Below, in pieces: positions 6,400 through 40,711 of a stretch of 47,258 nt of DNA. The stretch comes from a bacterium (lineage in GTDB: Bacteria > Patescibacteriota > Minisyncoccia > JBDRLZ01). Location: NCBI GenBank assembly GCA_043812555.1, contig JBDRLZ010000017.1, positions 1-47,258 of the forward strand, given 5' to 3'. Both the position numbers and the translations under genes were made by a program. Position 1 is the stretch's first letter. Every line of letters begins with the position of its first letter. The notes beneath the pieces are model-generated. The model ran no database searches. It was not told the origin of the DNA and saw only the letters and a program-made list of their open reading frames with translations.

Positions 6400-7722
6400 A
6401 TGGAGGCAAAAGACAGGTTAATTTTCGCTTTGGACATTGACAAAGAAAAAGCTCTGCCACTTTTAGATCAGCTTCAAGGTAAAGTGGGCATGATTAAAGT
6501 TAATTCTTTAGCTGCTGAATGGCCGGAAGCTGTAGGTGAGATCAAAAGCCGCGGTTTAAAAGTCTGGCGTGATTGGAAACATCATGACATCCCTGGCACA
6601 GTTGCCAATTTTATCAAAGCTGATGTAAAAATTGCAGTGGATATGTGCACGGTGCACACTATTGGCGGTTCAGCAATGATGGAAGCAGCAGTAGAGGCAA
6701 AAGATGCTGATTTAAAAATTTTGGGAATTACTATTCTCACCAGCCATAGCCAACTAAGTTTTAATGTAGAGACTGGAATCCAAGGAGCAATACAGGATAA
6801 AGTAATAGATTTAGCTCTACGGGCTGAAGAAGCTGGGCTAGATGGCGTGGTTGCATCTGCAAAAGAAGCAACAGCTTTACGCAAAGTTCTGAAGCCAAAG
6901 ACTCTGATTGTCACTCCGGGTATCACGCCAATCTGGGCTGCTAAACGCGAGGATCAAGCTCGGGTGACAACGCCCAAGCAAGCAATTATAAATGGCTCTG
7001 ATTATATTGTTGTTGGCAGTGCCATTTATAAAGCAGAAAATCCAGCTGAAGCGGCAGACAAGATTGTTGCTGAAATTAAAGAGGGACTTAAAGAAATAGA
7101 ATGGCGAGTAGACCAACGCGATTTAGCGTTCAAGCTTTTTGACGCTGGTATAATTAAATTCGGCGCTTTTAAGCTCAAGTTGCACGAGAAGCAACCCGAC
7201 GCGCCTTTAAGCCCGATTTATATTGATTTAAGAATTACTAGATCAATACCAGGCCTGCTTGTTGATGTTGCAGAAATTTTAGACAAAAAGGCCGCTAGAG
7301 ATGGGATAGAATTTGAGCTGATAGCTGATATCCCAACAGCTGCCACGCCAATAGTAACAATTATGAGCTTTTTTAATGATAAACCAATGATTTCGCCGAA
7401 AATTTCTAAAACTCACGGCTTGAGCGGTGAGATTGATGGACTTTTTGAACCAGGTCAAAAAGTTTTGTTGATTGACGATTTGGTTACAACCGCGGATTCA
7501 AAAATCGAGGCCGCAGAAATTTTTGAAAAAAATCGACTTATTATTAAAGACATCTTGGTTTTAGTTGACCGCGAACAAGGCGGCCATGAAGCTCTTCTCC
7601 AAGCCGGATACAAACTGCATTCAGTATTTAAAATTACTGAAATGTTGGAATTGTATCTGGAAGCAGGAAGAATAAACCAAGAAAAGTACGATGAGACAAT
7701 CGCCTATTTAAAAGGCGATTAG
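6400..7722 (+). CDS. pyrF: bifunctional orotidine-5'-phosphate decarboxylase / orotate phosphoribosyltransferase (PyrF N-terminal, PyrE C-terminal)
   Basis: The N-terminal half has the OMP decarboxylase signature (LIFALD...DWKHHDIPGTV). The C-terminal half has the PRPP-binding motif VLLIDDLVTTADS. An AGGAGG Shine-Dalgarno (SD) sequence lies 9 nt upstream. Confidence 0.8.
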   Translation: MEAKDRLIFALDIDKEKALPLLDQLQGKVGMIKVNSLAAEWPEAVGEIKSRGLKVWRDWKHHDIPGTVANFIKADVKIAVDMCTVHTIGGSAMMEAAVEAKDADLKILGITILTSHSQLSFNVETGIQGAIQDKVIDLALRAEEAGLDGVVASAKEATALRKVLKPKTLIVTPGITPIWAAKREDQARVTTPKQAIINGSDYIVVGSAIYKAENPAEAADKIVAEIKEGLKEIEWRVDQRDLAFKLFDAGIIKFGAFKLKLHEKQPDAPLSPIYIDLRITRSIPGLLVDVAEILDKKAARDGIEFELIADIPTAATPIVTIMSFFNDKPMISPKISKTHGLSGEIDGLFEPGQKVLLIDDLVTTADSKIEAAEIFEKNRLIIKDILVLVDREQGGHEALLQAGYKLHSVFKITEMLELYLEAGRINQEKYDETIAYLKGD

Positions 7723-17513: not shown

Positions 17514-17996
17514 ATGGCACAAGATTACTATCAAATTTTAGGCGTTTCTAATGAAGCGTCACAAGACGATATTAAAAAAGCGTTTCGGCGCTTGGCCCAC
17601 CAGTATCATCCTGATAAAAAAGAAGGCAACGAACAAAAGTTTAAAGAAATTAACGAAGCTTATCAGATTTTGTCTAATTCCAAAAAACGCCAGCAATATG
17701 ACTATGGTCAAGCCAGCGGCGGCTTTGGCAGTGATTATGGCGGCGGCTTTGGCGATTTTGCATTTAATTTTGGAAGTTTTTTTAATCTCAACGACTTGCT
17801 CCGAGATATTTTTCAAAGAAGCTATTCCCAGCCAAGAGAAGTAATTTCTATACCGATTGAGCTTTCGCTTGAACAGGCTTTAAACGGCGGCATAATAGAA
17901 AGAGACATTGGAGAAGGCCGTTTAATTCAAATTAAAATTATCCCGCCGAATCTTAATAATAGACAAAAGAAAATACTAGAAGATATGAAGTTATGA
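17514..17996 (+). CDS. dnaJ: J-domain co-chaperone, truncated DnaJ lacking the CxxCxGxG zinc-finger domain
   Basis: Has DYYQILGV...HPDK, a Gly/Phe-rich linker ([19 protein letters not shown]) and a short C-terminal remnant. Only 160 aa. Confidence 0.8.
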
Positions 17997-18754: not shown

Positions 18755-20059
18755 ATGCAACGAACTTTAATTCAAGACTTAAACAAAAAAATCGGCGAAA
18801 AAATAAAGATTTGCGGTTGGGTTGATTCGCGCCGGGATCATGGCAAAATTGTTTTTATTGATTTGCGCGATCGTTCTGGTATTGTTCAAGTTGTGACAAC
18901 CGAAGATGTAAGACAAGAATGGGTTTTGGAAATTATTGGCAAAATTCAAAAACGGCCAAAAAATCAAGAAAATCCAAAAATTAGAACAGGCGCAATAGAA
19001 ATTGCCGCAGAAAAAATAAAAATTTTAAATAAAGCTAAGACCCTGCCTTTTGAATTAGACAAACCGGTTTCCGAAGACTTGAGAATGCAATACCGGTATT
19101 TGGATTTACGCAGTGAGCGCATGAAAAATAATATTATTTTGCGGCATAAAATTATTAAGCTTATTAGAGATTTTTTAGACAAAGAAAATTTTGTTGAGAT
19201 AGAAACGCCAATTCTAACAAAATCAACTCCAGAAGGCGCTCGCGACTATATTGTGCCATCGCGGCTTCAGCCCGGCAAATTTTACGCTTTGCCGCAATCA
19301 CCCCAGCAATACAAGCAATTACTAATGGTCGCTGGCCTAGAAAAATATTTTCAAATTGCCAGATGTTTTCGCGATGAAGACACGCGCGGCGACCGCCAGC
19401 CTGAATTTACGCAATTAGACTTAGAAATGTCTTTTGTTGAACAAGAAGATATTTTAAAACTTGTTCAAGAATTAATGCTCAAGATTTGCCCAAAAGCAAG
19501 TTTTCAAAGATTAACCCATGAACAAGCAATAAAAAAATACAAGACTGACAAGCCGGATTTAAGAAAAAACAAAGAAGACTTTGCTTTTTGTTGGATTTTG
19601 GATTGGCCATTATTTGAATATAATCAAGAAGAAAAACGCTGGGATCCAATGCACCATATTTTTACCGCGCCAAAAGACCCAAATTTTAAAGACCCAAAAT
19701 CAGCCAAGTCTTGGCAGCACGATTTAGTTTTGAACGGCTATGAAGTCGGCGGCGGAAGCATTAGAATTCACGATCGCAAAACACAAGAAAAAATTTTTAG
19801 ATTAGTCGGCCTTTCTGAAAAACAAATCCAAGAAAAATTCGGTCATTTATTAAATGCTTTTGAATACGGCTGTCCGCCGCACGGCGGAATTGCCTCTGGG
19901 CTTGATCGATTAATTATGCTTTTAGCTCAAGAACCAAGCATCCGCGAAGTTATTGCTTTTCCAAAAACCGGCGACGGCCGGGATTTAATGATGAACGCGC
20001 CAAGCAAATTAGATAAAAAACAATTAAAAGAACTGCATATTAAATGCTTGACAAAGTAA
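18755..20059 (+). CDS. aspS: aspartyl-tRNA synthetase, bacterial-type core lacking the GAD insertion domain
   Basis: Has the FYALPQSPQQYKQLLM...CFRDEDTRGDRQPEFTQLDLEMSF motif 2 region and GGIASGLDRLIMLL...AFPKT motif 3. DKPDLR is followed almost directly by FCWILDWPLFE. Confidence 0.85.
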   Translation: MQRTLIQDLNKKIGEKIKICGWVDSRRDHGKIVFIDLRDRSGIVQVVTTEDVRQEWVLEIIGKIQKRPKNQENPKIRTGAIEIAAEKIKILNKAKTLPFELDKPVSEDLRMQYRYLDLRSERMKNNIILRHKIIKLIRDFLDKENFVEIETPILTKSTPEGARDYIVPSRLQPGKFYALPQSPQQYKQLLMVAGLEKYFQIARCFRDEDTRGDRQPEFTQLDLEMSFVEQEDILKLVQELMLKICPKASFQRLTHEQAIKKYKTDKPDLRKNKEDFAFCWILDWPLFEYNQEEKRWDPMHHIFTAPKDPNFKDPKSAKSWQHDLVLNGYEVGGGSIRIHDRKTQEKIFRLVGLSEKQIQEKFGHLLNAFEYGCPPHGGIASGLDRLIMLLAQEPSIREVIAFPKTGDGRDLMMNAPSKLDKKQLKELHIKCLTK

Positions 20060-30946: not shown

Positions 30947-31201
30947 TTATTTAGTTTTTTTGTTTCCCCCAATCTTCTTTGTCTTCGTGCTTAAAAAAGA
31001 ATCTTTTTCCCACCAATTAATTCCCATTGCTTTAGCTTTATCTACTCCAGCGATTAAAAGTCTTATCTTGATAGTCAATAAATCGACATCAGCCAGTTTA
31101 ATTTGAATATCGCCAACAATAACAATGCCTTTATCTAAAATTAGTGAAAGAACATCAGCTAGAGTATTGCCGACAGTTGATTTTACAATTGTTTTTGTCA
31201 T
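30947..31201 (-). CDS. gvpJ: gas vesicle protein GvpJ (GvpA/J/M family)
   Basis: Has [58 protein letters not shown]. The VDKAKxMGINWW block is characteristic of GvpJ. Confidence 0.8.
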   Translation of the reverse strand: MTKTIVKSTVGNTLADVLSLILDKGIVIVGDIQIKLADVDLLTIKIRLLIAGVDKAKAMGINWWEKDSFLSTKTKKIGGNKKTK

Positions 31202-31737
31202 CTTAATTGTCCTATTGGTCCTAAATCTAAATTCAAATCTTTTTCTTTAAGACCAAAGATTAATCTTAATTCTTCTAATTTGCTTTCTATTGCCTGCAGA
31301 TTTAATCCTAATTTTTCTATCTCTGTTTGGGTCAAATGCCCAGCCTGCACTCTTCTTGTTGCTTCTCTTTCTACTAAGTCAACAATCAGTTTGATTAGGG
31401 TTAAAACTAATTTAGCCAGACCTGATTCTGCTTGCCTAGGGGTGTCAGCATTAATCATTTGATTAATATGAGCTTGGGTTTTTTTAATTTGATTTTCTAA
31501 TTTTTTTAGATAGACTTTATCTCCTATTTCAGCTTGATTTATATCTCCAACTCTCGCGCCTTGCTGGGTTTCTAATCTTGACATAGAAATAAGGACAAGT
31601 TTCAACTGGATAGCCAAGAGATCCAAATCAGCTAGTCTGACTATTAAATCTCCCTGCACCACTGCTCCTTTGTCAATCAGCTTGTCCAAAGCATCAACCA
31701 AACCAGCATTTTTGTTGTAATTATTCGCTTCGCTCAT
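31198..31737 (-). CDS. gvpK: fusion of a GvpA/J/S-family domain (N-terminal) with GvpK (C-terminal)
   Basis: The N-terminus GLVDALDKLIDKGAVVQGDLIVRLADLDLLAIQLKLVLIS is a GvpA-family core. The C-terminus LAKLVLTLIKLIVDLVEREATRRVQAGHLTQTEIEKLGL is the GvpK pattern. It occupies the S-K position of the L-S-K-J gene order. Confidence 0.7.
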   Translation of the reverse strand: MSEANNYNKNAGLVDALDKLIDKGAVVQGDLIVRLADLDLLAIQLKLVLISMSRLETQQGARVGDINQAEIGDKVYLKKLENQIKKTQAHINQMINADTPRQAESGLAKLVLTLIKLIVDLVEREATRRVQAGHLTQTEIEKLGLNLQAIESKLEELRLIFGLKEKDLNLDLGPIGQLR

Positions 31738-32521
31738 AATTATGGTAACAAGGCCAAGGTCCGGTCATTTCAATGTCTAGTCCTTGAGAATTATATTTTT
31801 CTTTTATTTTCTTAATCTTATTTTGAAATCGGGCTAATTTTGCGTCTTTTAATAAATAAAAAGCATTTAAGATCATTTCCTCTGGCCGGCCAGTAAATTC
31901 TTTTGCCAAAAGCTTGCTTTTATTTTTATTCAAGGCTATTTGGCCTGCGCTCTCATATATATTTTTAATAATCCTATCTAATTTTTTATCTTTTATTTGT
32001 TCAATTATTGCATCAATCTCTTTTTGAACAAAGAAAGCCTCGCCTCTGGACATGGACTCGATTTTTTTGTTTTTGACTAAAACTGCCTTATTTTTCCGGG
32101 CAATGCTTTTTTTGAAAATATTCTCTTTTAAAAAAACTTTTACTCCCCATTCCTGTTTCCCTACTAAATTTTTTAAACTCTTTTTAAATTGCTCATAAAG
32201 CTTTTTTAAATTTTCTTCTAGGCTTTCTTTGGTTTTAAATATCACGCCGAATTGCATGGGAATTACTGGAATTCCTCTATTTTTGCCCATTGCTTGTTCA
32301 ACCACTTGCTCATGAATTTCTGCCTTTTTCGTAATCCACTTTAAATCTTCTTGGGCTTTTCTTTGAATCTTTTCTGAAGTAAATTTTTCTAAAGAAACCC
32401 GGCTTATCACTGCTTCCAAATCTTGATAAGGCAAAACTAGAATTCGTCCTCTATCAATGCCTTTTCCAAAAAATTCAGAACGGCCTTTTTGTCTAATGCA
32501 ATATAAGTATAAGCCCTTCAT
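31721..32521 (-). CDS. gvpL: gas vesicle protein GvpL/GvpF family (second copy)
   Basis: Has the MKGLYLYCI start, LPYQDLEAVISRV, and C-terminal LTGPWPCYHN. Confidence 0.75.
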   Translation of the reverse strand: MKGLYLYCIRQKGRSEFFGKGIDRGRILVLPYQDLEAVISRVSLEKFTSEKIQRKAQEDLKWITKKAEIHEQVVEQAMGKNRGIPVIPMQFGVIFKTKESLEENLKKLYEQFKKSLKNLVGKQEWGVKVFLKENIFKKSIARKNKAVLVKNKKIESMSRGEAFFVQKEIDAIIEQIKDKKLDRIIKNIYESAGQIALNKNKSKLLAKEFTGRPEEMILNAFYLLKDAKLARFQNKIKKIKEKYNSQGLDIEMTGPWPCYHNYERSE

Positions 32522-32524
32522 ATT

Positions 32525-32788
32525 TTATTCTTCTTTAACAAGGGCTGTATCTGTTCTTTTGCGCAGATCTATTCGCTCATATTTGAGCAAATCTCCTTTG
32601 ACATCTAAAAGAATCTCATAAGTACCTAAGACATCCATGCCATCAGGAATAGATTTTTTTTCAACAATCTCAATCACAGCTATCCAATTGGCTTTTTCTC
32701 TTCTCAAGCCAATGCCAGCCGGAGATTTAAATCCAGTTAATTCAACTAATTGTTTTTTTGCATTGTCAATAAGTTCTTTTGGCTTCAT
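32525..32788 (-). CDS. gvpO: gas vesicle protein GvpO
   Basis: AKKQLVELTGFK...NWIAVIEIVEKKSIPDGMDVLGTYEILLDVKGDLLKYERIDLRKR matches the GvpO pattern. Confidence 0.7.
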   Translation of the reverse strand: MKPKELIDNAKKQLVELTGFKSPAGIGLRREKANWIAVIEIVEKKSIPDGMDVLGTYEILLDVKGDLLKYERIDLRKRTDTALVKEE

Positions 32789-33006
32789 GATATTTGATTT
32801 AATTTTTCTAAAATAATTTTCTCTTTTTTTTGATATTCAGCTTGAGTAATTTGCTCTGCTTCTAAAGCCATCTGCAGATTAAATAATTCTGTTTGCAGCT
32901 TTTCTGGGGTGTCTTCTAATTCTTCTCGAGCCAGGTTATGTATTTTTTTAAAAATACCAACAAGTCCTTTAGCTGGGAGTAATAATAAATCATCTATTAA
33001 AAGCAT
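32785..33006 (-). CDS. gvpG: gas vesicle protein GvpG
   Basis: MLLIDDLLLLPAKGLVGIFKKI...ELFNLQMALEAEQITQAEYQKKEKIILEKL matches the GvpG pattern. Confidence 0.75.
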   Translation of the reverse strand: MLLIDDLLLLPAKGLVGIFKKIHNLAREELEDTPEKLQTELFNLQMALEAEQITQAEYQKKEKIILEKLNQIS

Positions 33007-33701
33007 AAGTTTACAAAATTATAAGGAGGGACAGGACCGACATAGATAAATTTTATTCTATTGTCATATTTTTTGCCTATTTCTTCTACTCTTTTATCAA
33101 ATTTTTTCTCTTTTTTCTTAGAGACCAAGAAGGCGCTATTGAAAATCATCGCATCACCAAAACAAGCTCTTGATTTAAAATCTACGGCTAATTTGTCTAA
33201 TGCCTGAATAATCTTTTGGGCCTCTTTTTCTCTTTTTTGTTCTAATGCTTTTCCCACTAACTCTCCCACAGCCGCGACTCTGAACTGGCTTGGATTTTTC
33301 CGGGCCTGATTTTTAGCAATTTGGATTTCTTTGTTTTCTCCTATTTCCTGAAAAATACTGGAGATGTCTCGCCACAATGCTTTAAGGCCTAATTCTACTT
33401 TGCCTTGTGTTTTTTTAAATGCTTCTAAAAGTTCTTTTCTTTTTGCTTTTAGTATTTTTTCTTTGATATCTTTCGTGCTTTTGGCCACTATTCCGAAACG
33501 AACCGGCAAAACATCATATCCTTGCTGCATTACTTTTTCAATAACTTTTTGATGAGCAATTAAATGTTCTCGGCTGAAACAAGGTTTTTTTGATCTCAAA
33601 TCTCGAACTACAACTGCCAGATTGCCTTGATTGATAGTGTAGGCTTGCTTAAACTTACACGGCCTTTTTTCTTTAATAATACAGTAGAGATATTTGCCCA
33701 T
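32997..33701 (-). CDS. gvpF: gas vesicle protein GvpF
   Basis: Has the MGKYLYCII start, DVLPVRFG, and C-terminal YVGPVPPYNF. Confidence 0.75.
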   Translation of the reverse strand: MGKYLYCIIKEKRPCKFKQAYTINQGNLAVVVRDLRSKKPCFSREHLIAHQKVIEKVMQQGYDVLPVRFGIVAKSTKDIKEKILKAKRKELLEAFKKTQGKVELGLKALWRDISSIFQEIGENKEIQIAKNQARKNPSQFRVAAVGELVGKALEQKREKEAQKIIQALDKLAVDFKSRACFGDAMIFNSAFLVSKKKEKKFDKRVEEIGKKYDNRIKFIYVGPVPPYNFVNLCF

Positions 33702-33704
33702 CTA

Positions 33705-34025
33705 TTATTTCTTGAGAATTCCTGGCAAAGGCATTCCTAACTTACCCAGATTTCTAATTATAGAAGCGAAAAGAGCGATTACGACTAAGACAAATACTCC
33801 GAAGACAATAAAAGCCAGGCCAGGCAAAGCTTGCCCGACTATTTCAATTACTGCAAAGCCAAGAATATATCCCAAGACCGGTCCTTTCATAAAATTACCG
33901 AGTTTCCTAAAATCAAAAACTTTTTTCGCAAAAGCACTGATAATCCCTAAAACAACATCAACTAGCAATAAAATTACAATAATCTGCATTTGGTAATTCC
34001 CAAAAAGATTAATTATTTCTTCCAT
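33705..34025 (-). CDS. three-TM small membrane protein inside the gvp cluster (weak holin-like resemblance)
   Basis: 106 aa. IIVILLLVDVVLGIISAFAKKVFDFRKLGNFMKG followed by two further TM helices loosely recalls the phage holin 4_1-type organisation. Confidence 0.4.
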   Translation of the reverse strand: MEEIINLFGNYQMQIIVILLLVDVVLGIISAFAKKVFDFRKLGNFMKGPVLGYILGFAVIEIVGQALPGLAFIVFGVFVLVVIALFASIIRNLGKLGMPLPGILKK

Positions 34026-34035
34026 ATTATTTTTG

Positions 34036-34446
34036 CTATTTTACTTTAATTCTATTGTTTAATTCGACCTTTATTAAGCAAATTGCTTTTTTAATTTGCC
34101 CAATGCCTTTGTTAATCCCCTGGTCAATAATCTGCCCTAAACTCAACTCTTCGCTTGGATTATCTTTGCCAGAATTATGTTTTGGCCCGCCTGCCGACGA
34201 GGCAGGCTTTTGTCTAGCTTTCTTCTTGGTTTTTTTCTTTAAAACTTTTGGCTTTTTCTCGTTTTGGCGAGTGACTTTATAGCAATCTCGGCCCTGCAAT
34301 TTTTCAATAAGGCCCTTTTTGTCCAAACCAGCGCAAATAAGGCGAGTATAATCATTACTAATTTTCATCTGCCTAGCAATCCATTGAACAGGAGCTTCTC
34401 CCTTCTTTTCTAAAATTTTTTCCAAAATCTCTTGTTCGGTGGTCAT
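34036..34446 (-). CDS. winged-helix DNA-binding protein with a lysine-rich tail, inside the gvp cluster
   Basis: Has a PVQWIARQMKISNDYTRLICAGLDKKGLIEKL wHTH-like segment and the basic tract KKPKVLKKKTKKKARQKP. Confidence 0.45.
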   Translation of the reverse strand: MTTEQEILEKILEKKGEAPVQWIARQMKISNDYTRLICAGLDKKGLIEKLQGRDCYKVTRQNEKKPKVLKKKTKKKARQKPASSAGGPKHNSGKDNPSEELSLGQIIDQGINKGIGQIKKAICLIKVELNNRIKVK

Positions 34447-34715
34447 GGTTTTTTAATTTTGTTTAAACCAGTTTTTACTCTCCAGCCAGCACTGGCTCGA
34501 AATTCTTTGCCACTTTTGGTCAAGCCTTTTATTTCTTTTTGATAACCACGTATTTCCTCACCTTTTTCTTCCATTTCCTGGACCACATCCAAAATACTAG
34601 CTACGCCTTTAAATAAACCCTCAAACAATCCACCAATTGCTTTGCCAGTGTTTTCTAGATTTTTTTTCAGCGTCCCTAAATCCTCTTTTGAAGTTTTCTT
34701 AATTTTTCTTGCCAT
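34443..34715 (-). CDS. 90-aa hypothetical protein, gvp-cluster member of unknown family
   Basis: The ORF is translationally coupled (4-nt overlap) to the downstream gene. No motif was recognised. Confidence 0.4.
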   Translation of the reverse strand: MARKIKKTSKEDLGTLKKNLENTGKAIGGLFEGLFKGVASILDVVQEMEEKGEEIRGYQKEIKGLTKSGKEFRASAGWRVKTGLNKIKKP

Positions 34716-34718
34716 AAT

Positions 34719-35042
34719 TTAATATCTTAATATTGGGTTTTTTTTCTTGTTTTTCGCTGTCTCTGAAGTGCCTCTTATTTGTTCAGCTGTTTTAGCAGTT
34801 CTCTCAAAAAGCTTGGTCATCTGTTTTTCAACATTTTGCAATCTCATTTGCAACTGCCTTCTTCTCCTTTTCAAACCTTTTAATTCCTTGTTTATTCTAT
34901 CTCTCTCATTGCGACGCATATACAAATCCAAAATAGCAGTAGTTGGCAGGTCTGGCTTACTACTTTTTCTAACTGTGCCAGTATATGTTCTTAAATCATG
35001 CAATCCGCTAAGATCTTGCAATGTTTTTATTGATGTTTTCAT
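34719..35042 (-). CDS. 107-aa coiled-coil protein immediately after gvpN (positional analogue of GvpV, unverified)
   Basis: LDLYMRRNERDRINKELKGLKRRRRQLQMRLQNVEKQM is a coiled coil. The gene follows gvpN, as gvpV does in some proteobacterial clusters. Confidence 0.4.
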   Translation of the reverse strand: MKTSIKTLQDLSGLHDLRTYTGTVRKSSKPDLPTTAILDLYMRRNERDRINKELKGLKRRRRQLQMRLQNVEKQMTKLFERTAKTAEQIRGTSETAKNKKKNPILRY

Positions 35043-35043
35043 C

Positions 35044-35976
35044 TTAGCAATATTTTTTAATTAATTTACGAACCATTTTTTCTATTTCTTTGCGTCTTGC
35101 TGACCAAGGACTTCGGGTAGTCTGCGAGACCAATATATCTTGAGCTAATTCTTGAAACACTGGATTACGAGAACAAAGCTCTCCCTTATTAACTATCAAA
35201 GCTTTAGCAAGAGCAATACAGCTTCGAACAGTTGGCGGAAACTCGCAAGGATTGCCTGTTCTCATGCCCCTGACAATATCAACAATTTTTTCTGCATCTT
35301 GCTTGGGCAAACCGGATTTTGCTTGAGTTATGGCTACTTCTGTTTCCCGATCAAAATACTCCAGATCCATTGTTATCATTCTATCGCGCAGGGCATCCTG
35401 GGCTTTATGAGTGCCAGCATATTCTTCAGGATTAGAAGTAAAAATAGCGCAAAAATTAGGATGAACTTTTAAGTAATAGTGCTCTTCTCCTTGTCTTTGC
35501 GTTGGCAAATCCATTACTTTTTCCTGCAAAATTGAAAGCAAAACATTATTTGCTTCAGGCCTTGATCTGGTGAATTCATCATAAATCAGGGCATAGCCAT
35601 TCTTGCAGGCAATGGTCAGACGATTATCCATCCAGTGTTTCTGCATATCTTGTTCTACTTTTAAAACACTAGCGATAAAATTATCCCTTAAATAACGGTA
35701 GCGATAGCCATGTTCTCCGCCAATTAAATCCGAGGTTTTATATTCCTCATCTCCATGCAAAAGCACAGCCGGTCTTTTGAGTTTGCCAGCTACATGTAAA
35801 GCTAGAGTGGTTTTGCCAGTGCCTGTTGGTCCTCTAAAATGAACTGGCATGCCAATTTTGAGATAATTGAGCGCTCGTTGTGTTAATTGTTTGATATAAG
35901 CCGTCTCAACAAAATCAGGCATTGGCCGAGGCCTAATAACAGCCTGTTCTTCTTCTGAAGATAGATAATAAGACAT
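35044..35976 (-). CDS. gvpN: gas vesicle AAA+ ATPase GvpN
   Basis: Has Walker A GPTGTGKTT, Walker B LIYDEF and a CbbQ/NirQ/GvpN-like layout. 310 aa. Confidence 0.85.
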   Translation of the reverse strand: MSYYLSSEEEQAVIRPRPMPDFVETAYIKQLTQRALNYLKIGMPVHFRGPTGTGKTTLALHVAGKLKRPAVLLHGDEEYKTSDLIGGEHGYRYRYLRDNFIASVLKVEQDMQKHWMDNRLTIACKNGYALIYDEFTRSRPEANNVLLSILQEKVMDLPTQRQGEEHYYLKVHPNFCAIFTSNPEEYAGTHKAQDALRDRMITMDLEYFDRETEVAITQAKSGLPKQDAEKIVDIVRGMRTGNPCEFPPTVRSCIALAKALIVNKGELCSRNPVFQELAQDILVSQTTRSPWSARRKEIEKMVRKLIKKYC

Positions 35977-35997
35977 AATCTTTTCTTAAATTAATTT

Positions 35998-36387
35998 TTA
36001 TTCTGAACTTGCTTTTTTGCTCAAACCAGCCCAATATCCAGCTGCTTCTTTTCTTTCTGCGGCATACTCGCCAAGAATTCTTTTTACTCTTCTTTTTATC
36101 TTTCCCACTCTTTCAACAACATTCGCCATCATTACTTTAAAATCAGCCATTCTGCTAGTTTCACTCTTTCTCAGAAATTCTTTCAAATCAGCAGCTAATT
36201 CTTTCATTTCTTTGTCAAATTGAGCCAGAAGATCAGCAGTATCTCCCTTAATATCTTTTATTTGGACTCGAATATCTTGCATTAACTTAGCCGTATCTCC
36301 CTTAACATCCTTTACATATTGGGTTCTGTCCCGATGAGAAGTTTTAATATCAGCCACTAAATTTTTTATTTCTTGTGCCCAAGCCAT
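35998..36387 (-). CDS. 129-aa helical protein, paralogue of the 175-aa protein at 36724-37251
   Basis: Shares DTxxLLxxF(x10)LKExLxKxExxRxxDFxxMMxx[VI] and C-terminal ERxExxxxWxxL blocks with the 175-aa ORF. It has the internal repeat VKDVKGDTAKL / IKDIKGDTADL. Confidence 0.55.
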   Translation of the reverse strand: MAWAQEIKNLVADIKTSHRDRTQYVKDVKGDTAKLMQDIRVQIKDIKGDTADLLAQFDKEMKELAADLKEFLRKSETSRMADFKVMMANVVERVGKIKRRVKRILGEYAAERKEAAGYWAGLSKKASSE

Positions 36388-36399
36388 ATTACAATTTTT

Positions 36400-36430
36400 A
36401 ATGCTTAATGCTTAATGCTTAATGCTTAAT
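36400..36430. repeat. heptanucleotide tandem repeat (AATGCTT) x 4.4
   Basis: Read directly. It lies in the 52-nt spacer between the zinc-finger gene stop (36440) and the 129-aa gene start (36387). Confidence 0.9.
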
Positions 36431-36439
36431 TTTCGACCT

Positions 36440-36757
36440 TTAATAATTTCCAATTTCTGGCAATCCAGTATCAGGACCCAAGCCCTTCTTGCCTTGTCTT
36501 CTATCTTCTGGCATTACGCCTTTGCCTTTGCAAACCGAACAAGGTAATCGGTGATGAGCAAAAACTCCTGTGCCATTACAAGCTGAACATGTTTCATGGG
36601 GAATATCAGCTATAGTAATCTTGCCTCTGCCTCCACAGACCTGACAGCTAGAAAGCTTTGAAGGAACTTCAAAAGGATCTTTGCCCTTGCCATGACAAAA
36701 AGCGCAGATAATTTTTTTAAATTTTATTGTTCTTTTTTTGACCATAAGTTTTTCCAT
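36440..36757 (-). CDS. stand-alone DnaJ-type zinc-finger protein (four CxxCxGxG repeats)
   Basis: Has CAFCHGKG, CQVCGGRG, CSACNGTG and CSVCKGKG in 105 aa, with no J domain. Confidence 0.7.
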   Translation of the reverse strand: MEKLMVKKRTIKFKKIICAFCHGKGKDPFEVPSKLSSCQVCGGRGKITIADIPHETCSACNGTGVFAHHRLPCSVCKGKGVMPEDRRQGKKGLGPDTGLPEIGNY

Positions 36758-37251
36758 TCAAAAGCTACTTTTTCTCTTTCTTTTTTAAAATTCTCAAGCA
36801 TTTGATGAACTTCTGTTTGCATTGTTTTTAATTCTTGTTTAATCCGGCTGGGTGTTTGTTTTTGACGGACTTCTTGCTCTTGTTTAATTTTAGCCAAAGT
36901 TTTTTTAAAATCTTTAAGCCGCAATTTTTCTCCCTTCTTTAACATATCATTAAGATTCCTGACCACGACCATTCCTTCTATGTGAAAATCAGCCAGCATT
37001 TTTTTGACCTTATGTTCTCGCTCTTCCTGGGTAATTAAAATATCCTCCATCATCTTATCAAAATCTTTTTTTCTCAAAGATTCATGCTTTGCCAAGGCTT
37101 CTTTTAATTCCCGGCTTATCTGCTCTCTCTTTTCTTTAAACTCCTCTAACAGCCTCTGGGTATCTTCAGCTATTGCTCCAATCACTTTTATTCGGGCTTT
37201 GTAAGAAGCAACAATATCTTTAGCGATTTTAAAATTATTATTTTCAGGCAT
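36724..37251 (-). CDS. 175-aa coiled-coil protein in the gvpC position, directly downstream of gvpA
   Basis: Highly charged and helical. The internal repeats LRKKDFDKMMEDI and LRLKDFKKTLAKI are 51 aa apart. It is a paralogue of the 129-aa ORF. Confidence 0.55.
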   Translation of the reverse strand: MPENNNFKIAKDIVASYKARIKVIGAIAEDTQRLLEEFKEKREQISRELKEALAKHESLRKKDFDKMMEDILITQEEREHKVKKMLADFHIEGMVVVRNLNDMLKKGEKLRLKDFKKTLAKIKQEQEVRQKQTPSRIKQELKTMQTEVHQMLENFKKEREKVAFEWKNLWSKKEQ

Positions 37252-37340
37252 AAAATTTATTCAAGGCATGCTTTAGCTATAAAGGACTTATTAATGTGCT
37301 TTTTAAGATAAAGGACGCCTTAAATCATTAGGGCTAGCTC

Positions 37341-37547
37341 TTAAGCGGCAGTGGCAGTAAGACCAACAGCTTCGGCATATTTTAGCCAAGTCTCAACAGA
37401 AGCAATTACTATTCGGGCTTCAATTGCCAAGAGTTCAATGCCAACCAAAGAAACTCTTACCCAGGCGTCAATAACAATGCCTTTGTCAAGAATTCGGTCA
37501 ATTACTTCCACTAAACTAGAGCTAGATACTGCTTTTTCTACAGCCAT
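37341..37547 (-). CDS. gvpA: major gas vesicle structural protein GvpA
   Basis: [55 protein letters not shown] is a near-canonical GvpA core. SD AAGGAGG lies 6 nt upstream. Confidence 0.95.
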
Positions 37548-37572
37548 GTTTTTCCTCCTTAATTAATAATAA

Positions 37573-37689
37573 TTAAAAAAACCCTCCTCGACCAAAAGGG
37601 TTACCCAAATACAAAAATCCGCGAGCTTTGCTTACTCTCTCTCTCTCTCTCTCTGATAAAACTTTATTTTCCTCCATTTTTTCCTCCAT
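37573..37689 (-). CDS. candidate leaderless 38-codon upstream ORF in the gvpA leader
   Basis: The ATG lies 8 nt after the -10 element. It reads MEEKMEENKVLSERERERVSKARGFLYLGNPFGRGGFF. The ORF spans the (AG)10 tract and the hairpin and stops in the T-run. Confidence 0.3.
   Translation of the reverse strand: MEEKMEENKVLSERERERVSKARGFLYLGNPFGRGGFF
37580..37602 (-). promoter_or_regulatory. terminator/attenuator-like hairpin followed by a T-run, just upstream of the gvpA SD sequence
   Basis: The minus strand reads AACCCTTTT-GGTCG-AGGAGGGTT (9 bp including two G-U pairs), then TTTTTAATT. Confidence 0.45.
37635..37654. repeat. dinucleotide microsatellite (CT)10, which is (AG)10 on the gvpA strand
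   Basis: Read directly. It lies 88-107 nt upstream of the gvpA ATG. Confidence 0.95.
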
Positions 37690-37690
37690 T
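37667..37690. repeat. perfect 12-nt tandem duplication TTTTCCTCCATT x2
   Basis: Read directly. On the gvpA strand it reads AATGGAGGAAAA x2, which gives two in-frame ATGGAGGAA starts. Confidence 0.9.
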
Positions 37691-37697
37691 GATTTCA

Positions 37698-37725
37698 AGT
37701 ATAACATACCCTATTACTTTGCCAA
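37698..37725 (-). promoter_or_regulatory. candidate gvpA promoter TTGGCA-N16-TGtTATACT
   Basis: The -35 is at 37720-37725 and the -10 at 37698-37703, with an upstream TG. It overlaps the last codons of the truncated glycosyltransferase ORF. Confidence 0.45.
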
Positions 37726-38241
37726 GACAAAATCTGTGGATAACTTTTTGTAAATCCTTAAAATTTCTTTAACTTTTTCTCCGGCAATTATAATTTTTTC
37801 GGTTTTTATTTTATGGGTTTTTATTATTTGTTTTCGCAGTTTTTTTGAATCAACAATAATTTTTTTGGCTTTTCTGGCGATCTGCTTCTGCAAAGAGCGC
37901 TCTTTGAATTTTCTTTCTATTTTCCAGAGATTTAAAATTATTTTTCCCGGATAAGTTAAAGGCGCTGTTCCTGATGCGGCATGGAAAATATCTAATCTTT
38001 CTTTGGCTAAAAATGCTGAAACTAAAATCTGTGAATAAGCATAGCTGACAAATTTTCTGTATCTGGAAAATGGGAAGTATTTAATTTTTATATTTTTGGC
38101 TTGATATTTTTCAGCTTGATCCTTGGGAATGCGCGAGTCAAAAAATAAAACATACTGATTGCGTTTATCAAGCTTAACTAAAGCGCTCAATAAACGCTTA
38201 ACATAGCTATTTAAAATTCGTGCGTCAATCCCAATTTTCAT
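37714..38241 (-). pseudogene. glycosyltransferase family 4 N-terminal domain only (C-terminal catalytic half missing)
   Basis: MKIGIDARIL... is a typical GT4/GT1 N-terminus. The ORF ends after 175 aa without the EX7E-containing domain. Confidence 0.45.
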
Positions 38242-39261: not shown

Positions 39262-39358
39262 GGCATATATAAATATGATTCATAAATCATATTCTCTCTC
39301 TCCCTTCTAAACTATATTTAAATTTTTAGGTTCTTGACGCTATTTCAGCGTCAGCCAT

Positions 39359-39387
39359 AGTATAGCACATCAAGATAATTTTGTCAA
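39359..39387 (-). promoter_or_regulatory. near-consensus promoter TTGACA-N17-TATACT on the minus strand
   Basis: The -35 is at 39382-39387 and the -10 at 39359-39364. It is copy 1 of a ~45-nt imperfect direct repeat. Confidence 0.5.
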
Positions 39388-39456
39388 GAGCTTTTAGCAT
39401 TTTTAGCGCGTCTCTGTTTTAAACTGCTGTTTTCTGGCTTCTTTATTGTCGCCAAT

Positions 39457-39485
39457 AGCATAGCATATCTTGATAAATTTGTCAA
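39457..39485 (-). promoter_or_regulatory. second copy, TTGACA-N17-TATGCT, on the minus strand
   Basis: The -35 is at 39480-39485 and the -10 at 39457-39462. Confidence 0.45.
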
Positions 39486-39548
39486 GAGTTCTTGGCAATT
39501 TTTATGACTTTCAAAATAATTAAAACTATGCTATGCTTAGCATAACCT

Positions 39549-39995
39549 ATGAAAACCCTAGTTATCAACAGAAGAGCGCGCTATGATTATGAGATTTTTG
39601 AAACCTATGAAGCAGGCTTGGTTTTGTTTGGCCATGAAGTCAAAGCAATAAAAACAGGCAAAGCAAGTTTAAAAAGCAGTTTTGTCAGCCTTAAAAACAG
39701 CGAGCTTTTCTTGACCAATGCCTATATTGCGCCGTATCAGCCAAAAAATACGCCCAAAGATTATGACCCGCAAAGATCAAGAAAGCTGCTTTTAAACAAG
39801 CACGAGATAAGCTCTTTAATCGGCAAATTAAAGCAAAAAGGCTTGACATTAATAGCAATTAGATTATATAATAAAAAAGGCAAAATTAAACTCAATTTCG
39901 GCCTGGCCAAAGGCAAAAGAAAAATTGATAAAAGAGAAAAAATTAAACAAAGAGAGTTTAAAAGGCAAAAAGAACGATTACTAAAGGGCTTGTAA
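39549..39995 (+). CDS. smpB: SsrA-binding protein SmpB
   Basis: Has NRRARYDYEIFETYEAGLVLFGHEVKAIK and a basic C-terminal tail. Confidence 0.9.
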   Translation: MKTLVINRRARYDYEIFETYEAGLVLFGHEVKAIKTGKASLKSSFVSLKNSELFLTNAYIAPYQPKNTPKDYDPQRSRKLLLNKHEISSLIGKLKQKGLTLIAIRLYNKKGKIKLNFGLAKGKRKIDKREKIKQREFKRQKERLLKGL

Positions 39996-40214
39996 AAGAA
40001 TCGACAAAAAGTTTTTTTCAAAATATGCAAGTCGAGCAAAGCTAGTATAACTCGTAAATCTATCTAGCAAATCTAATAAGTGCAGATCAAACAGTAAACT
40101 ATCCTCGAGCTTACGCTTACGCGTACGCTTAAACAAATAGTTGTTCATTAAATAAACTTGTCGAAGTGTTTTAAAAAATCTTTTTAGACGAGGGTGCAAT
40201 TCCCTCCAAGTCCA
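39986..40214 (+). ncRNA. ssrA: transfer-messenger RNA (tmRNA, ssrA), unusually short at about 229 nt
   Basis: The 5' GGGCTTG pairs with the 3' CAAGTCC, giving a G3:U70 wobble (the Ala identity element). The 5' AATCGAC motif is present. The P2 helix is AAAAAG-T-TTTTTT / AAAAAA-T-CTTTTT. The T arm is GAGGG-TGCAATT-CCCTC and the discriminator is A. The tag frame GCA at 40067 to TAA at 40130 encodes ANLISADQTVNYPRAYAYAYA. Confidence 0.7.
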
Positions 40215-40216
40215 CT

Positions 40217-40711
40217 ATCATATACAGAAGAATCAACAATAGAATATTTGCAAAACAAGTTCGCCTAATTGACGAAGTCGGAAAACAGCGAGGCATTGTT
40301 TCAATTCAAGAAGCATTAAGCATTGCCCAAGAGAGCGGGCTTGATTTGGTTGAAGTGGCTCAAAAAGCTAATCCGCCTGTTTGCCGAATAATGGATTACG
40401 GCAAATATAAATATCGAGAAGTCAAAAATCAGAAACAAAAAATAAAAAACAAAAAAATCAAAAGCATTAGAATCAGGTTAGCAACGAGCGAACATGATAT
40501 CCAGACAAAAATTAAAAATGCCCACAGATTTTTAAAAAAAGGACATAAGGTCAGGGTTGAAATTCAATTAAGGGGCCGGGAAAAAGCTCATTATGATTTG
40601 GCTCGAGAAAGATTGCAGGAATTTATTAAACAAATCGACGAAAAAGTTAAGATTGATCAATTTATTAAAAAGTCAATGCGAGGGCTAGATGTAATTGTAT
40701 GCCGAGAGTAA
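40217..40711 (+). CDS. infC: translation initiation factor IF-3 with a non-AUG start (ATC 40217, ATA 40220 or ATT 40199)
   Basis: The frame is open from 40175. It reads [61 protein letters not shown], which is canonical IF-3. The ORF track captures only the part from an internal TTG codon at 40346. Confidence 0.8.

Follow-up and report, generated by a model that had tools for sequence, protein, structure and literature searches.

Gene content of the gvp cluster

The window analysed here is the whole 47,258-nucleotide stretch of contig JBDRLZ010000017.1 (GenBank assembly GCA_043812555.1), and our subject is the gas-vesicle (gvp) gene cluster that it carries. The cluster consists of 15 open reading frames (ORFs) between positions 30947 and 37547, all on the minus strand and overlapping or abutting, so that the ORF list bears out the co-directional block described in an earlier note made from the letters alone. 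The only intergenic gaps follow gvpA (~89 nt) and flank gvpN (20-50 nt), and the neighbouring genes lie on the same strand at a distance of 6 nt upstream and 57 nt downstream. All core gvp ORFs are intact, with neither frameshift nor truncation. They are listed here in the order of transcription.

37341..37547, minus strand: gvpA, major gas-vesicle wall protein, 68 aa (Pfam Gas_vesicle, PF00741, E 1.3e-16, 60.8 bits against a gathering score of 25)
35044..35976, minus strand: gvpN, AAA+ ATPase, 310 aa (Pfam AAA_5, E 2.3e-16; NCBIfam gas_vesic_GvpN)
32997..33701, minus strand: gvpF, GvpL/GvpF family, 234 aa (Pfam GvpL_GvpF, E 6.6e-54)
32785..33006, minus strand: gvpG (Pfam GvpG, E 7.4e-13, 48.9 bits against 30.6)
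32525..32788, minus strand: gvpO (Pfam GvpO, E 8.2e-18, 64.6 bits against 25)
31721..32521, minus strand: gvpL, GvpL/GvpF family, 266 aa (Pfam GvpL_GvpF, E 2.1e-50)
31198..31737, minus strand: gvpS-gvpK fusion (Gas_vesicle at residues 13-49, E 4e-10, and GvpK at residues 99-178, E 2.4e-26, both above the gathering score)
30947..31201, minus strand: gvpJ-like minor GvpA-family protein, 84 aa (Pfam Gas_vesicle, E 5.3e-14; best NCBIfam model GvpJ, below its cutoff)

Pfam gathering scores were the threshold for family calls, with the curated NCBIfam cutoffs applied in addition, and the matches to the core families are far beyond chance. GvpA scores 130.1 bits against NCBIfam PRK09371 (cutoff 100) and aligns end to end with the cryo-electron microscopy (cryo-EM) chains 8GBS and 7R1C. 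In effect, 62 of its 68 residues (91%) are those of the Anabaena GvpA in 8GBS, and residues 1-64 match the Bacillus protein in 7R1C with E 3e-26, Trp54 being common to both. GvpN reaches 323.8 bits against the NCBIfam gas_vesic_GvpN equivalog (TIGR02640, cutoff 266.8); a Walker-A-type sequence (GPTGTGKT) and a Walker-B-type sequence (LIYDEF) are readable in its translation, and the identical protein is already auto-annotated as GvpN in GenBank. None of the lineage-specific NCBIfam models (F, L, G, J, M) reaches its cutoff, the best being cyanobacterial GvpF for gvpF (134.8 bits) and GvpL for gvpL (92.7 bits), and so the labels F versus L, and J versus M versus S, follow best score and gene position. 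Each of the families named in the earlier note (A, N, two F/L, G, O, a GvpA-family/GvpK fusion and J) was recovered by profile hidden Markov model (HMM) search, and the gene order N-F-G-(O)-L-[S-K]-J is as first stated. The set present, A, F, G, J/S, K, L, O and N, comprises families that are essential or assisting in the systems studied.

The remaining ORFs lie between gvpA and gvpF.

36724..37251, minus strand: cc175, all-helical protein specific to the Candidate Phyla Radiation (CPR), proposed GvpC-like, directly downstream of gvpA
36440..36757, minus strand: ZnF105, stand-alone zinc-finger protein of DnaJ type (CXXCXGXG), candidate chaperone or holdase in assembly (Pfam DnaJ_CXXCXGXG, 34.8 bits against 32.7)
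35998..36387, minus strand: cc129, paralogue of cc175 (BLASTP E 3e-8), candidate second GvpC-like helical protein
34719..35042, minus strand: cc107, GvpV-like protein, directly after gvpN
34443..34715, minus strand: unk90, homologue of an Hsp20/GvpH-type N-terminal domain, aligning only to the N-terminal 70-95 residues of Hsp20-bearing relatives
34036..34446, minus strand: wHTH136, putative winged-helix DNA-binding protein and candidate regulator (weak Rrf2 and cas_HTH matches)
33705..34025, minus strand: small hydrophobic Phage_holin_4_1-family protein, directly upstream of gvpF (Pfam PF05105, 30.8 bits against 22.2)

No Pfam or NCBIfam family was found for cc175. Its own family comprises 138 homologue clusters, whose source labels read "hypothetical protein" from Patescibacteria or "bacterium", with the lone exception of a JGI label "urease accessory protein UreF", and identity is 55-90% across all CPR loci (comparison loci are given below as L plus a number). 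One cc175 homologue (P0269) recurs in identical form on 19 contigs, which come from at least eight samples (L022-L029). The AlphaFold2 model shows four long helices at a mean predicted local distance difference test score (pLDDT) of 72.6, and a Foldseek search with it against the PDB gave generic coiled-coil matches only (E > 0.5). The paralogue cc129, found in every CPR locus, shares an LRxxDFxxMM motif with cc175, which also contains an internal repeat motif. A cc175 profile built from CPR sequences only matches gvpA-adjacent Chloroflexi proteins of 323-368 aa (E 1e-12 to 6e-6). At its first appearance, Nostoc GvpC is matched at 25.8 bits (E 1.1e-6, 0 of 300 shuffled controls) in a database of ~2100 ORFs, a match that would be non-significant against a full database. 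The 110-bit GvpC score of later HMM iterations was set aside, GvpC itself being by then inside the profile. We propose that cc175 and cc129 are GvpC-like, on the grounds of their position, their fold class and a weak but specific similarity, and not members of the GvpC family.

ZnF105 is 54-86% identical in all CPR loci and 41% identical in two Chloroflexi gvp loci; a whole-library search with it returned 536 unnamed representatives and nothing specific. GvpL/F proteins with a fused J domain occur in other CPR gvp clusters, and the zinc-finger ORF of the window is separate. The dnaJ beside dnaK in the window (17514-17996) has only 160 aa, with the J domain alone detected, and that of a groundwater relative is alike (L019, 2598-3062, 154 aa).

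The protein following gvpN, cc107, is 36-77% identical across all CPR loci and finds the post-gvpN ORF of Chloroflexi by phmmer (4e-5). Its profile, searched within the collected gvp loci only, matched at first appearance the Nostoc "gas vesicle protein" WP_181985251.1 (2.5e-6) and, in Spartinivicinus, the ORF after gvpN (9e-4); shuffled sequences gave no match. The GvpV name for this position follows the Anabaena and Serratia nomenclature. As for unk90, it has no Pfam match and the alpha-crystallin (HSP20) domain is missing. Its full-length relatives, in CPR and Chloroflexi gvp clusters, carry PF00011 HSP20 in L001 and a weak PF05455 GvpH match in L030, and the gene is missing from L011.

The wHTH136 family was found in CPR only within the collected locus set, with several paralogues per cluster. 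The C-terminus of wHTH136 (residues 102-115, SLGQIIDQGINKGI) resembles GvpA helix 1 at both the DNA and the protein level (DNA 34101-34143 versus 37475-37517), and this stretch may be a remnant or a GvpA-mimicking peptide. The holin-like protein, in which three membrane spans were judged by eye from the translation, scores 23.7 bits against TIGR01593 (cutoff 40.2), and its gene occupies the equal position in L001, L011, L023 and L030. Whereas the earlier note had left about half of the cluster genes without an assignable family, part of these can now be placed, namely the two putative GvpC-like proteins, the GvpV-like protein and the Hsp20/GvpH N-domain; ZnF105, the winged-helix family and the Phage_holin_4_1-family protein are still lineage-specific or unexplained.

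Host genome and distribution of the cluster

The cluster is flanked by housekeeping genes. On one side are those for DnaB, PolX, DnaK, a class II aminoacyl-tRNA synthetase (D/K/N type), a Mur ligase, a class I aminoacyl-tRNA synthetase (Glu/Gln type), an S41 protease and an FKBP, and on the opposite side those for SmpB, transfer-messenger RNA (tmRNA), IF-3 and L20. The tmRNA (39986-40217, directly after smpB) was detected with Rfam at 73.4 bits, as 232 nt against a model of 374 positions, and was missed by ARAGORN. The taxon-labelled relatives of DnaK, at 73-77% identity, belong to Ca. Portnoybacteria, Ca. Azambacteria, the Parcubacteria group and Patescibacteria, with one exception labelled Elusimicrobiota. 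A closer DnaK, 90% identical, is found on groundwater-metagenome contigs which share with the window the synteny DnaK / J-domain DnaJ / orf120 ... S11 peptidase / response regulator / Mur ligase. From this one marker protein and the database labels we conclude that the contig belongs to a CPR bacterium of Parcubacteria type, in line with the host type that the earlier note had proposed, and not to a classical gas-vacuolate lineage.

The distribution of GvpN points the same way. Its best 120 homologues, at 67-100% identity, are labelled Patescibacteria, Ca. Doudnabacteria, Ca. Parcubacteria or "bacterium", except for one 4.8-kb contig labelled Proteobacteria (GvpN 69%). In a GTDB scan, which returned eight loci by exact peptide words and undercounts the CPR genomes with the cluster, the nearest relatives came from two metagenome-assembled genomes (MAGs), one of Patescibacteria (83%) and one labelled Ca. 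Saccharibacteria (78%), and from a single-amplified genome of Patescibacteria (75%); Chloroflexi and Alphaproteobacteria followed at 50-56%. Pairwise GvpN identity is at least 60% within the CPR type and at most 55% against the four non-CPR GvpN of that scan (Chloroflexi, Alphaproteobacteria); in the tblastn table the best Chloroflexi segment reaches 56%. The best plasmid GvpN is 53% identical (Methylocella), and phage records and IMG/VR contained no relative of GvpN. A plasmid or phage carrier of the cluster, considered as a candidate, is unsupported by these plasmid, phage and IMG/VR searches, which returned no close relative.

Gene context was compared for ten further proteins or loci. The common CPR order begins with gvpA, a helical protein of 172-188 aa, the DnaJ-type zinc finger, the second helical protein, gvpN, a protein of 103-116 aa and the winged-helix gene. 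An optional Hsp20, Cdc48-type AAA, ArsA and actin-like "Volactin" block and then an optional holin-like gene follow, and the order ends with gvpF, gvpG, gvpO, gvpL, gvpS-K and gvpJ. In the tblastn table the accessory genes are 36-90% identical across the CPR loci. The GvpS-GvpK fusion was found in all five CPR loci that span the region, whereas GvpK stands alone in the Alphaproteobacteria and Spartinivicinus loci, the Nostoc comparison being ambiguous. The window carries a minimal version of this order. Independent assemblies, drawn from at least 10 sample accessions, and one single-cell genome have the CPR-type cluster joined to housekeeping genes. These comparisons indicate a type of cluster that is specific to CPR and common across the radiation. 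The gas-vesicle trait, which the earlier note had called unexpected in such a lineage, does stand in a CPR contig but is not confined to this genome; it recurs widely in CPR data, where GenBank already has automatic GvpN or GvpA annotations. Two of the CPR clusters contain Volactin (PF25216) genes (L015, 19260-20297; L030, 15668-16693) near a Cdc48-type AAA gene, adjacent to it in L015, and in the Ca. Doudnabacteria cluster L001 an ORF with a GIY-YIG nuclease domain (19365-19637) lies between gvpL/F and gvpG.

The cluster had also been taken for a resident one whose composition matches its flanks, and both claims hold in part. No bounding direct or inverted repeats and no mobility genes were found around it, and overall GC is similar (35.5% against 37.1%). 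However, GC at third codon positions (GC3) is lower (0.288 against 0.324, p = 5e-4), the codon-usage distance exceeds the within-contig null (p ~0.016) and the tetranucleotide correlation is 0.95, compared with 0.98-0.99 for other stretches of the contig. Part of this shift may come from the Lys/Glu-rich helical proteins. In L011, whose GvpN is 91% identical, DNA similarity to the window is 82-88% over most of the cluster and ~70% across the winged-helix gene; it spans window positions 37751 to 30978 and stops at both ends. The flanks are unrelated, namely a truncated glycosyltransferase family 4 (GT4) gene and a TIG-domain protein in the window, and TsaD and GreA/penicillin-binding protein (PBP) in L011. 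On other CPR contigs the cluster follows ftsI (directly after rsmH-ftsL-ftsI in L022), follows RNase J and an HTH gene, or lies beside a ROK kinase, and its chromosomal site differs in every contig compared. Because the similarity to L011 ends at the cluster edges and the flanks are unrelated, the cluster, which is old within CPR, behaves as a relocatable cassette, probably exchanged among CPR bacteria. Between the window and L011, 14 orthologous gene pairs were compared, and dN/dS is 0.04-0.31 in every one (gvpA 0.037, ZnF105 0.145, the holin-like gene 0.25, cc129 0.31), which argues that purifying selection acts on the whole operon, including its unnamed genes. We also considered dS as evidence of horizontal transfer (0.58 for the cluster against L011, 1.14 for housekeeping genes against L019), but it gives nothing firm, as the partner contigs are maybe from different organisms.

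Among known systems, that of Bacillus megaterium (shell structure of GvpB, 7R1C) has the order gvpAPQBRNFGLSKJTU. The window resembles it in the co-directional N-F-G-L-S-K-J genes, in a GvpO/GvpR-type gene, in the minor GvpA paralogues S and J and in having no cyanobacterial-type GvpC repeats. It differs in its fused GvpS and GvpK, in the place of gvpO (between G and L) and in the absence of any identified homologue of P, Q, T or U, and another set of genes stands between A and F (two helical C-like, zinc finger, V-like, Hsp20 N-domain, winged-helix and holin-like). In Anabaena and Nostoc the order is gvpA-C-N-J-K-F-G-V-W. Here the likeness lies in GvpA itself, in a helical repeat protein that follows gvpA as gvpC does, and in the match of cc107 to the Nostoc protein; ArsA and Cdc48-type AAA genes are also found with the Nostoc plasmid cluster as well as with several of the CPR clusters. 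In contrast, the 33-residue GvpC repeat is not detectable in the window, the order after gvpN is different, GvpN is ~47% identical and GvpO is present.

The Chloroflexi MAG loci L006, L008 and L009 (Anaerolineae/Caldilineae) have the nearest non-CPR GvpN of the genome scan (~50-56%). They share the helical gvpA-adjacent family, the V-like gene after gvpN and an Hsp20-type gene, and L006 and L009 also the zinc finger. However, their helical protein is longer (323-368 aa) and encoded upstream of gvpA, the wHTH136 family and the holin-like gene were not found, and the S-K fusion was not detected, though these loci may not span that region. The haloarchaeal cluster is arranged as gvpACNO / gvpDEFGHIJKLM. 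Its GvpN is 38-41% identical to that of the window, and the essential families A, F, G, J/M, K, L, O and N are shared, with a counterpart of GvpH in the weak PF05455 match of L030 and the N-domain homologue of the window. Unlike haloarchaea, the window has neither the GvpD/E regulators nor GvpI, its genes form a single operon instead of two divergent ones, and the Hsp20 domain is missing.

Proposed function and alternative explanations

Taking gene content, host and distribution together, we are confident that the locus is a genuine gvp operon and that it belongs to a CPR chromosome. We put forward, with a probability of roughly 62%, that it is a functional operon native to a Parcubacteria-type CPR bacterium and a member of the CPR-specific cluster type, and on balance we expect that it makes gas vesicles in the following way. 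As in cyanobacteria, Bacillus and haloarchaea, GvpA would polymerise into a ribbed shell that lets gas pass and excludes water, the S-domain of the S-K fusion and GvpJ would act with GvpF, GvpL, GvpG, GvpK and GvpO as a nucleation and assembly complex, and the AAA+ ATPase GvpN would drive vesicle enlargement. To this we add that cc175 and cc129, at or near the gvpC position after gvpA, might bind and stiffen the outer shell, that cc107, the DnaJ-type zinc finger and the Hsp20-partner N-domain protein might serve as assembly factors or chaperones, and that the winged-helix protein might regulate the operon. One or two vesicles of ~85 x 200 nm could fill ~10-20% of a cell of 0.009 um3, the published CPR cell volume, a generic figure and not one for this genome, and so provide buoyancy; by arithmetic, one such vesicle is 12.6% of that volume, and one or two should therefore suffice for positive buoyancy. 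The operon would be kept by purifying selection while relocating between chromosomal sites, probably through exchange among CPR bacteria.

Several points weigh against this proposal. The GvpC repeat PF01304 was not detected (E <= 1) in cc175, cc129 or their CPR and Chloroflexi relatives, a search in which the Nostoc GvpC control scored 160 bits, and with hhalign the cc175 alignment gave no match to Nostoc GvpC (probability 0.3%). The phylum placement rests on one marker protein, DnaK, and on database labels; the window contains few ribosomal proteins and no rRNA. The Stokes rise of a 250-nm cell (0.06-0.3 mm/day) is smaller than its one-day Brownian displacement (0.55 mm), and the barometric scale height is 0.5-2.6 mm for such a cell and about 0.1-2.6 mm for cells of 250-400 nm. 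Since the rise is slower than Brownian displacement, water-column migration of free cells is implausible, and classical buoyancy regulation would be ineffective at 250 nm. Moreover, the closest DnaK relatives come from groundwater metagenomes, a habitat with no obvious use for water-column flotation. To our knowledge a gas vesicle has been seen in no CPR cell, and function is inferred here from the sequence. Some organisms with gvp clusters, such as Streptomyces, are not known to show visible vesicles. More likely uses are a gathering on the millimetre scale under ceilings or gas-water interfaces in still pore water, a use in host-epibiont pairs or aggregates, or a non-buoyancy role.

In the first alternative the cluster is genuinely of CPR but does not serve flotation, and acts instead in positioning on the millimetre scale at gas-water interfaces of still pore water, in the lift or dispersal of host-epibiont pairs or a host-free stage, as a cheap volume filler or as a stress-induced structure. 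The slow rise of 250-400-nm cells and the groundwater origin of the relatives favour it, as do the chaperone-type genes that travel with the CPR cluster (zinc finger, Hsp20, Cdc48, J-domain fusions) and the unexplained holin-family membrane protein conserved inside the operon. Nevertheless, the core set and GvpA are canonical and lowered density is the sole demonstrated effect of gas vesicles; the sequence indicates no specific alternative role, and the cell size entered is the generic CPR value. We consider this alternative unlikely.

A second alternative is that of a cryptic or occasionally expressed passenger, spread horizontally among CPR bacteria and making no vesicles in this host. The change of site from contig to contig, the end of the L011 similarity at the cluster edges, the mild difference in composition from the rest of the contig and the presence here of unk90, missing in L011, would all fit such a history. 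Yet every compared gene is under purifying selection (dN/dS 0.04-0.31), the core genes are unbroken, the cluster is kept in strongly reduced genomes, as more than 100 sequence clusters, and mobility genes and bounding repeats were not found, all of which makes a mere passenger improbable. The weakest alternative, a gvp block from another organism (e.g., Chloroflexi, a phage or a plasmid) joined to CPR DNA during assembly or binning, could appeal to the origin of the window in a MAG, to the slightly deviant GC3 and codon usage and to the 4.8-kb contig labelled Proteobacteria, but it is largely refuted and now very improbable, given the like clusters contiguous with housekeeping genes in assemblies made independently (among them a Ca. 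Doudnabacteria contig of 101 kb and the Patescibacteria single-amplified genome), the same-strand neighbours at 6 and 57 nt, the nearest non-CPR GvpN at no more than ~56% identity and the phage and IMG/VR collections with no relative.

Returning to the preferred reading, a functional operon native to CPR, part of it is already known: CPR proteins are auto-annotated as GvpN or GvpA in GenBank, and the cluster is one of many in the databases. What appears to be new is the conserved, lineage-specific accessory set and the S-K fusion around a canonical core, in a host group where the trait seems undiscussed. CPR bacteria are described as minimal, mostly episymbiotic cells. In the full text of 7.7 million PMC papers and of bioRxiv, subscription-only literature lying outside this scope, we found no paper linking gas vesicles or gvp genes to CPR beyond coincidental co-mentions. 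A broader search (other CPR classes, DPANN, ultra-small, epibiont), whose ranking did not require "gas vesicle", gave nothing relevant. The terms "vesicle", "buoyan" and "gvp" are absent from a 2026 review of the phylum and from a freshwater CPR ecogenomics study, and no report of intracellular organelles in CPR was found in the papers checked. A review of motility systems describes CPR motility as unexplored.

A structural and ecological trait not mentioned in reviews of the group would thus be added to CPR, together with a sharp physical question, since flotation of 250-nm cells is nearly ineffective. For gas-vesicle biology the cluster offers a new conserved accessory set (two proposed GvpC-like helical proteins, zinc finger, S-K fusion) and evidence of a relationship between parts of the Chloroflexi-type accessory set and of the cyanobacterial one. 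It is also a concrete target for cryo-electron tomography and metaproteomics, and, as a very compact natural cluster, one of interest for acoustic-reporter engineering. Tentatively, one might go further and suppose that ultra-small, host-dependent CPR bacteria build vesicles from a lineage-specific cassette of ~6.8 kb and 15 genes, exchanged among themselves, in a role new for gas vesicles. If so, the smallest known bacteria would possess a proteinaceous organelle, and this cassette organelle might act in trapping cells at interfaces or pore ceilings on the millimetre scale, in lifting or dispersing epibiont-host pairs, or in a cheap inflation of cell volume.

The gvpA leader and other features of the window

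Upstream of gvpA two further features were noted.

37698..37725, minus strand: promoter-like site TTGGCA-16-TATACT with TG (consensus scan only)
37573..37707, minus strand: gvpA leader with a doubtful 44-aa ORF, a (GA)n run and a terminator-like hairpin at 37602-37580

The hairpin is directly followed by a strong AAGGAGG ribosome-binding site of gvpA and could act as an attenuator. The promoter-like site falls within the block of DNA similar to L011, which starts at 37751, and together with the hairpin it hints at a separate control of gvpA. The doubtful ORF overlaps the hairpin and has no family match in Pfam or NCBIfam, and the close relative L011 alone has a similar one. With permissive settings, an Rfam scan of this leader and of the intergenic stretch upstream gave nothing credible. 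The block was originally given as 30947-37725; the end at 37725 takes in the promoter-like site and runs 12 nt into the upstream gene, over its stop. This upstream gene, an ORF of 175 aa (37714-38241), contains the N-terminal GT4 glycosyltransferase domain only, and the similarity to the L011 cassette starts 37 nt inside its 3' end.

Elsewhere in the window, two direct repeats of 66 nt (39339-39404 and 39437-39502, 74% identical and 98 nt apart) lie between a PIN-domain gene and smpB, a region in which a permissive Rfam scan gave no match. In the ORF of 440 aa at 6400-7722, an orotidine-5'-monophosphate (OMP) decarboxylase domain occupies residues 6-222, the C-terminal half having no assignment. 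Finally, the start of the contig (1-1889) carries a pyridine-nucleotide-disulphide oxidoreductase, then a short NiFe-hydrogenase large-subunit-like ORF (356 aa) at the contig start, which hints at hydrogen metabolism in this CPR genome.

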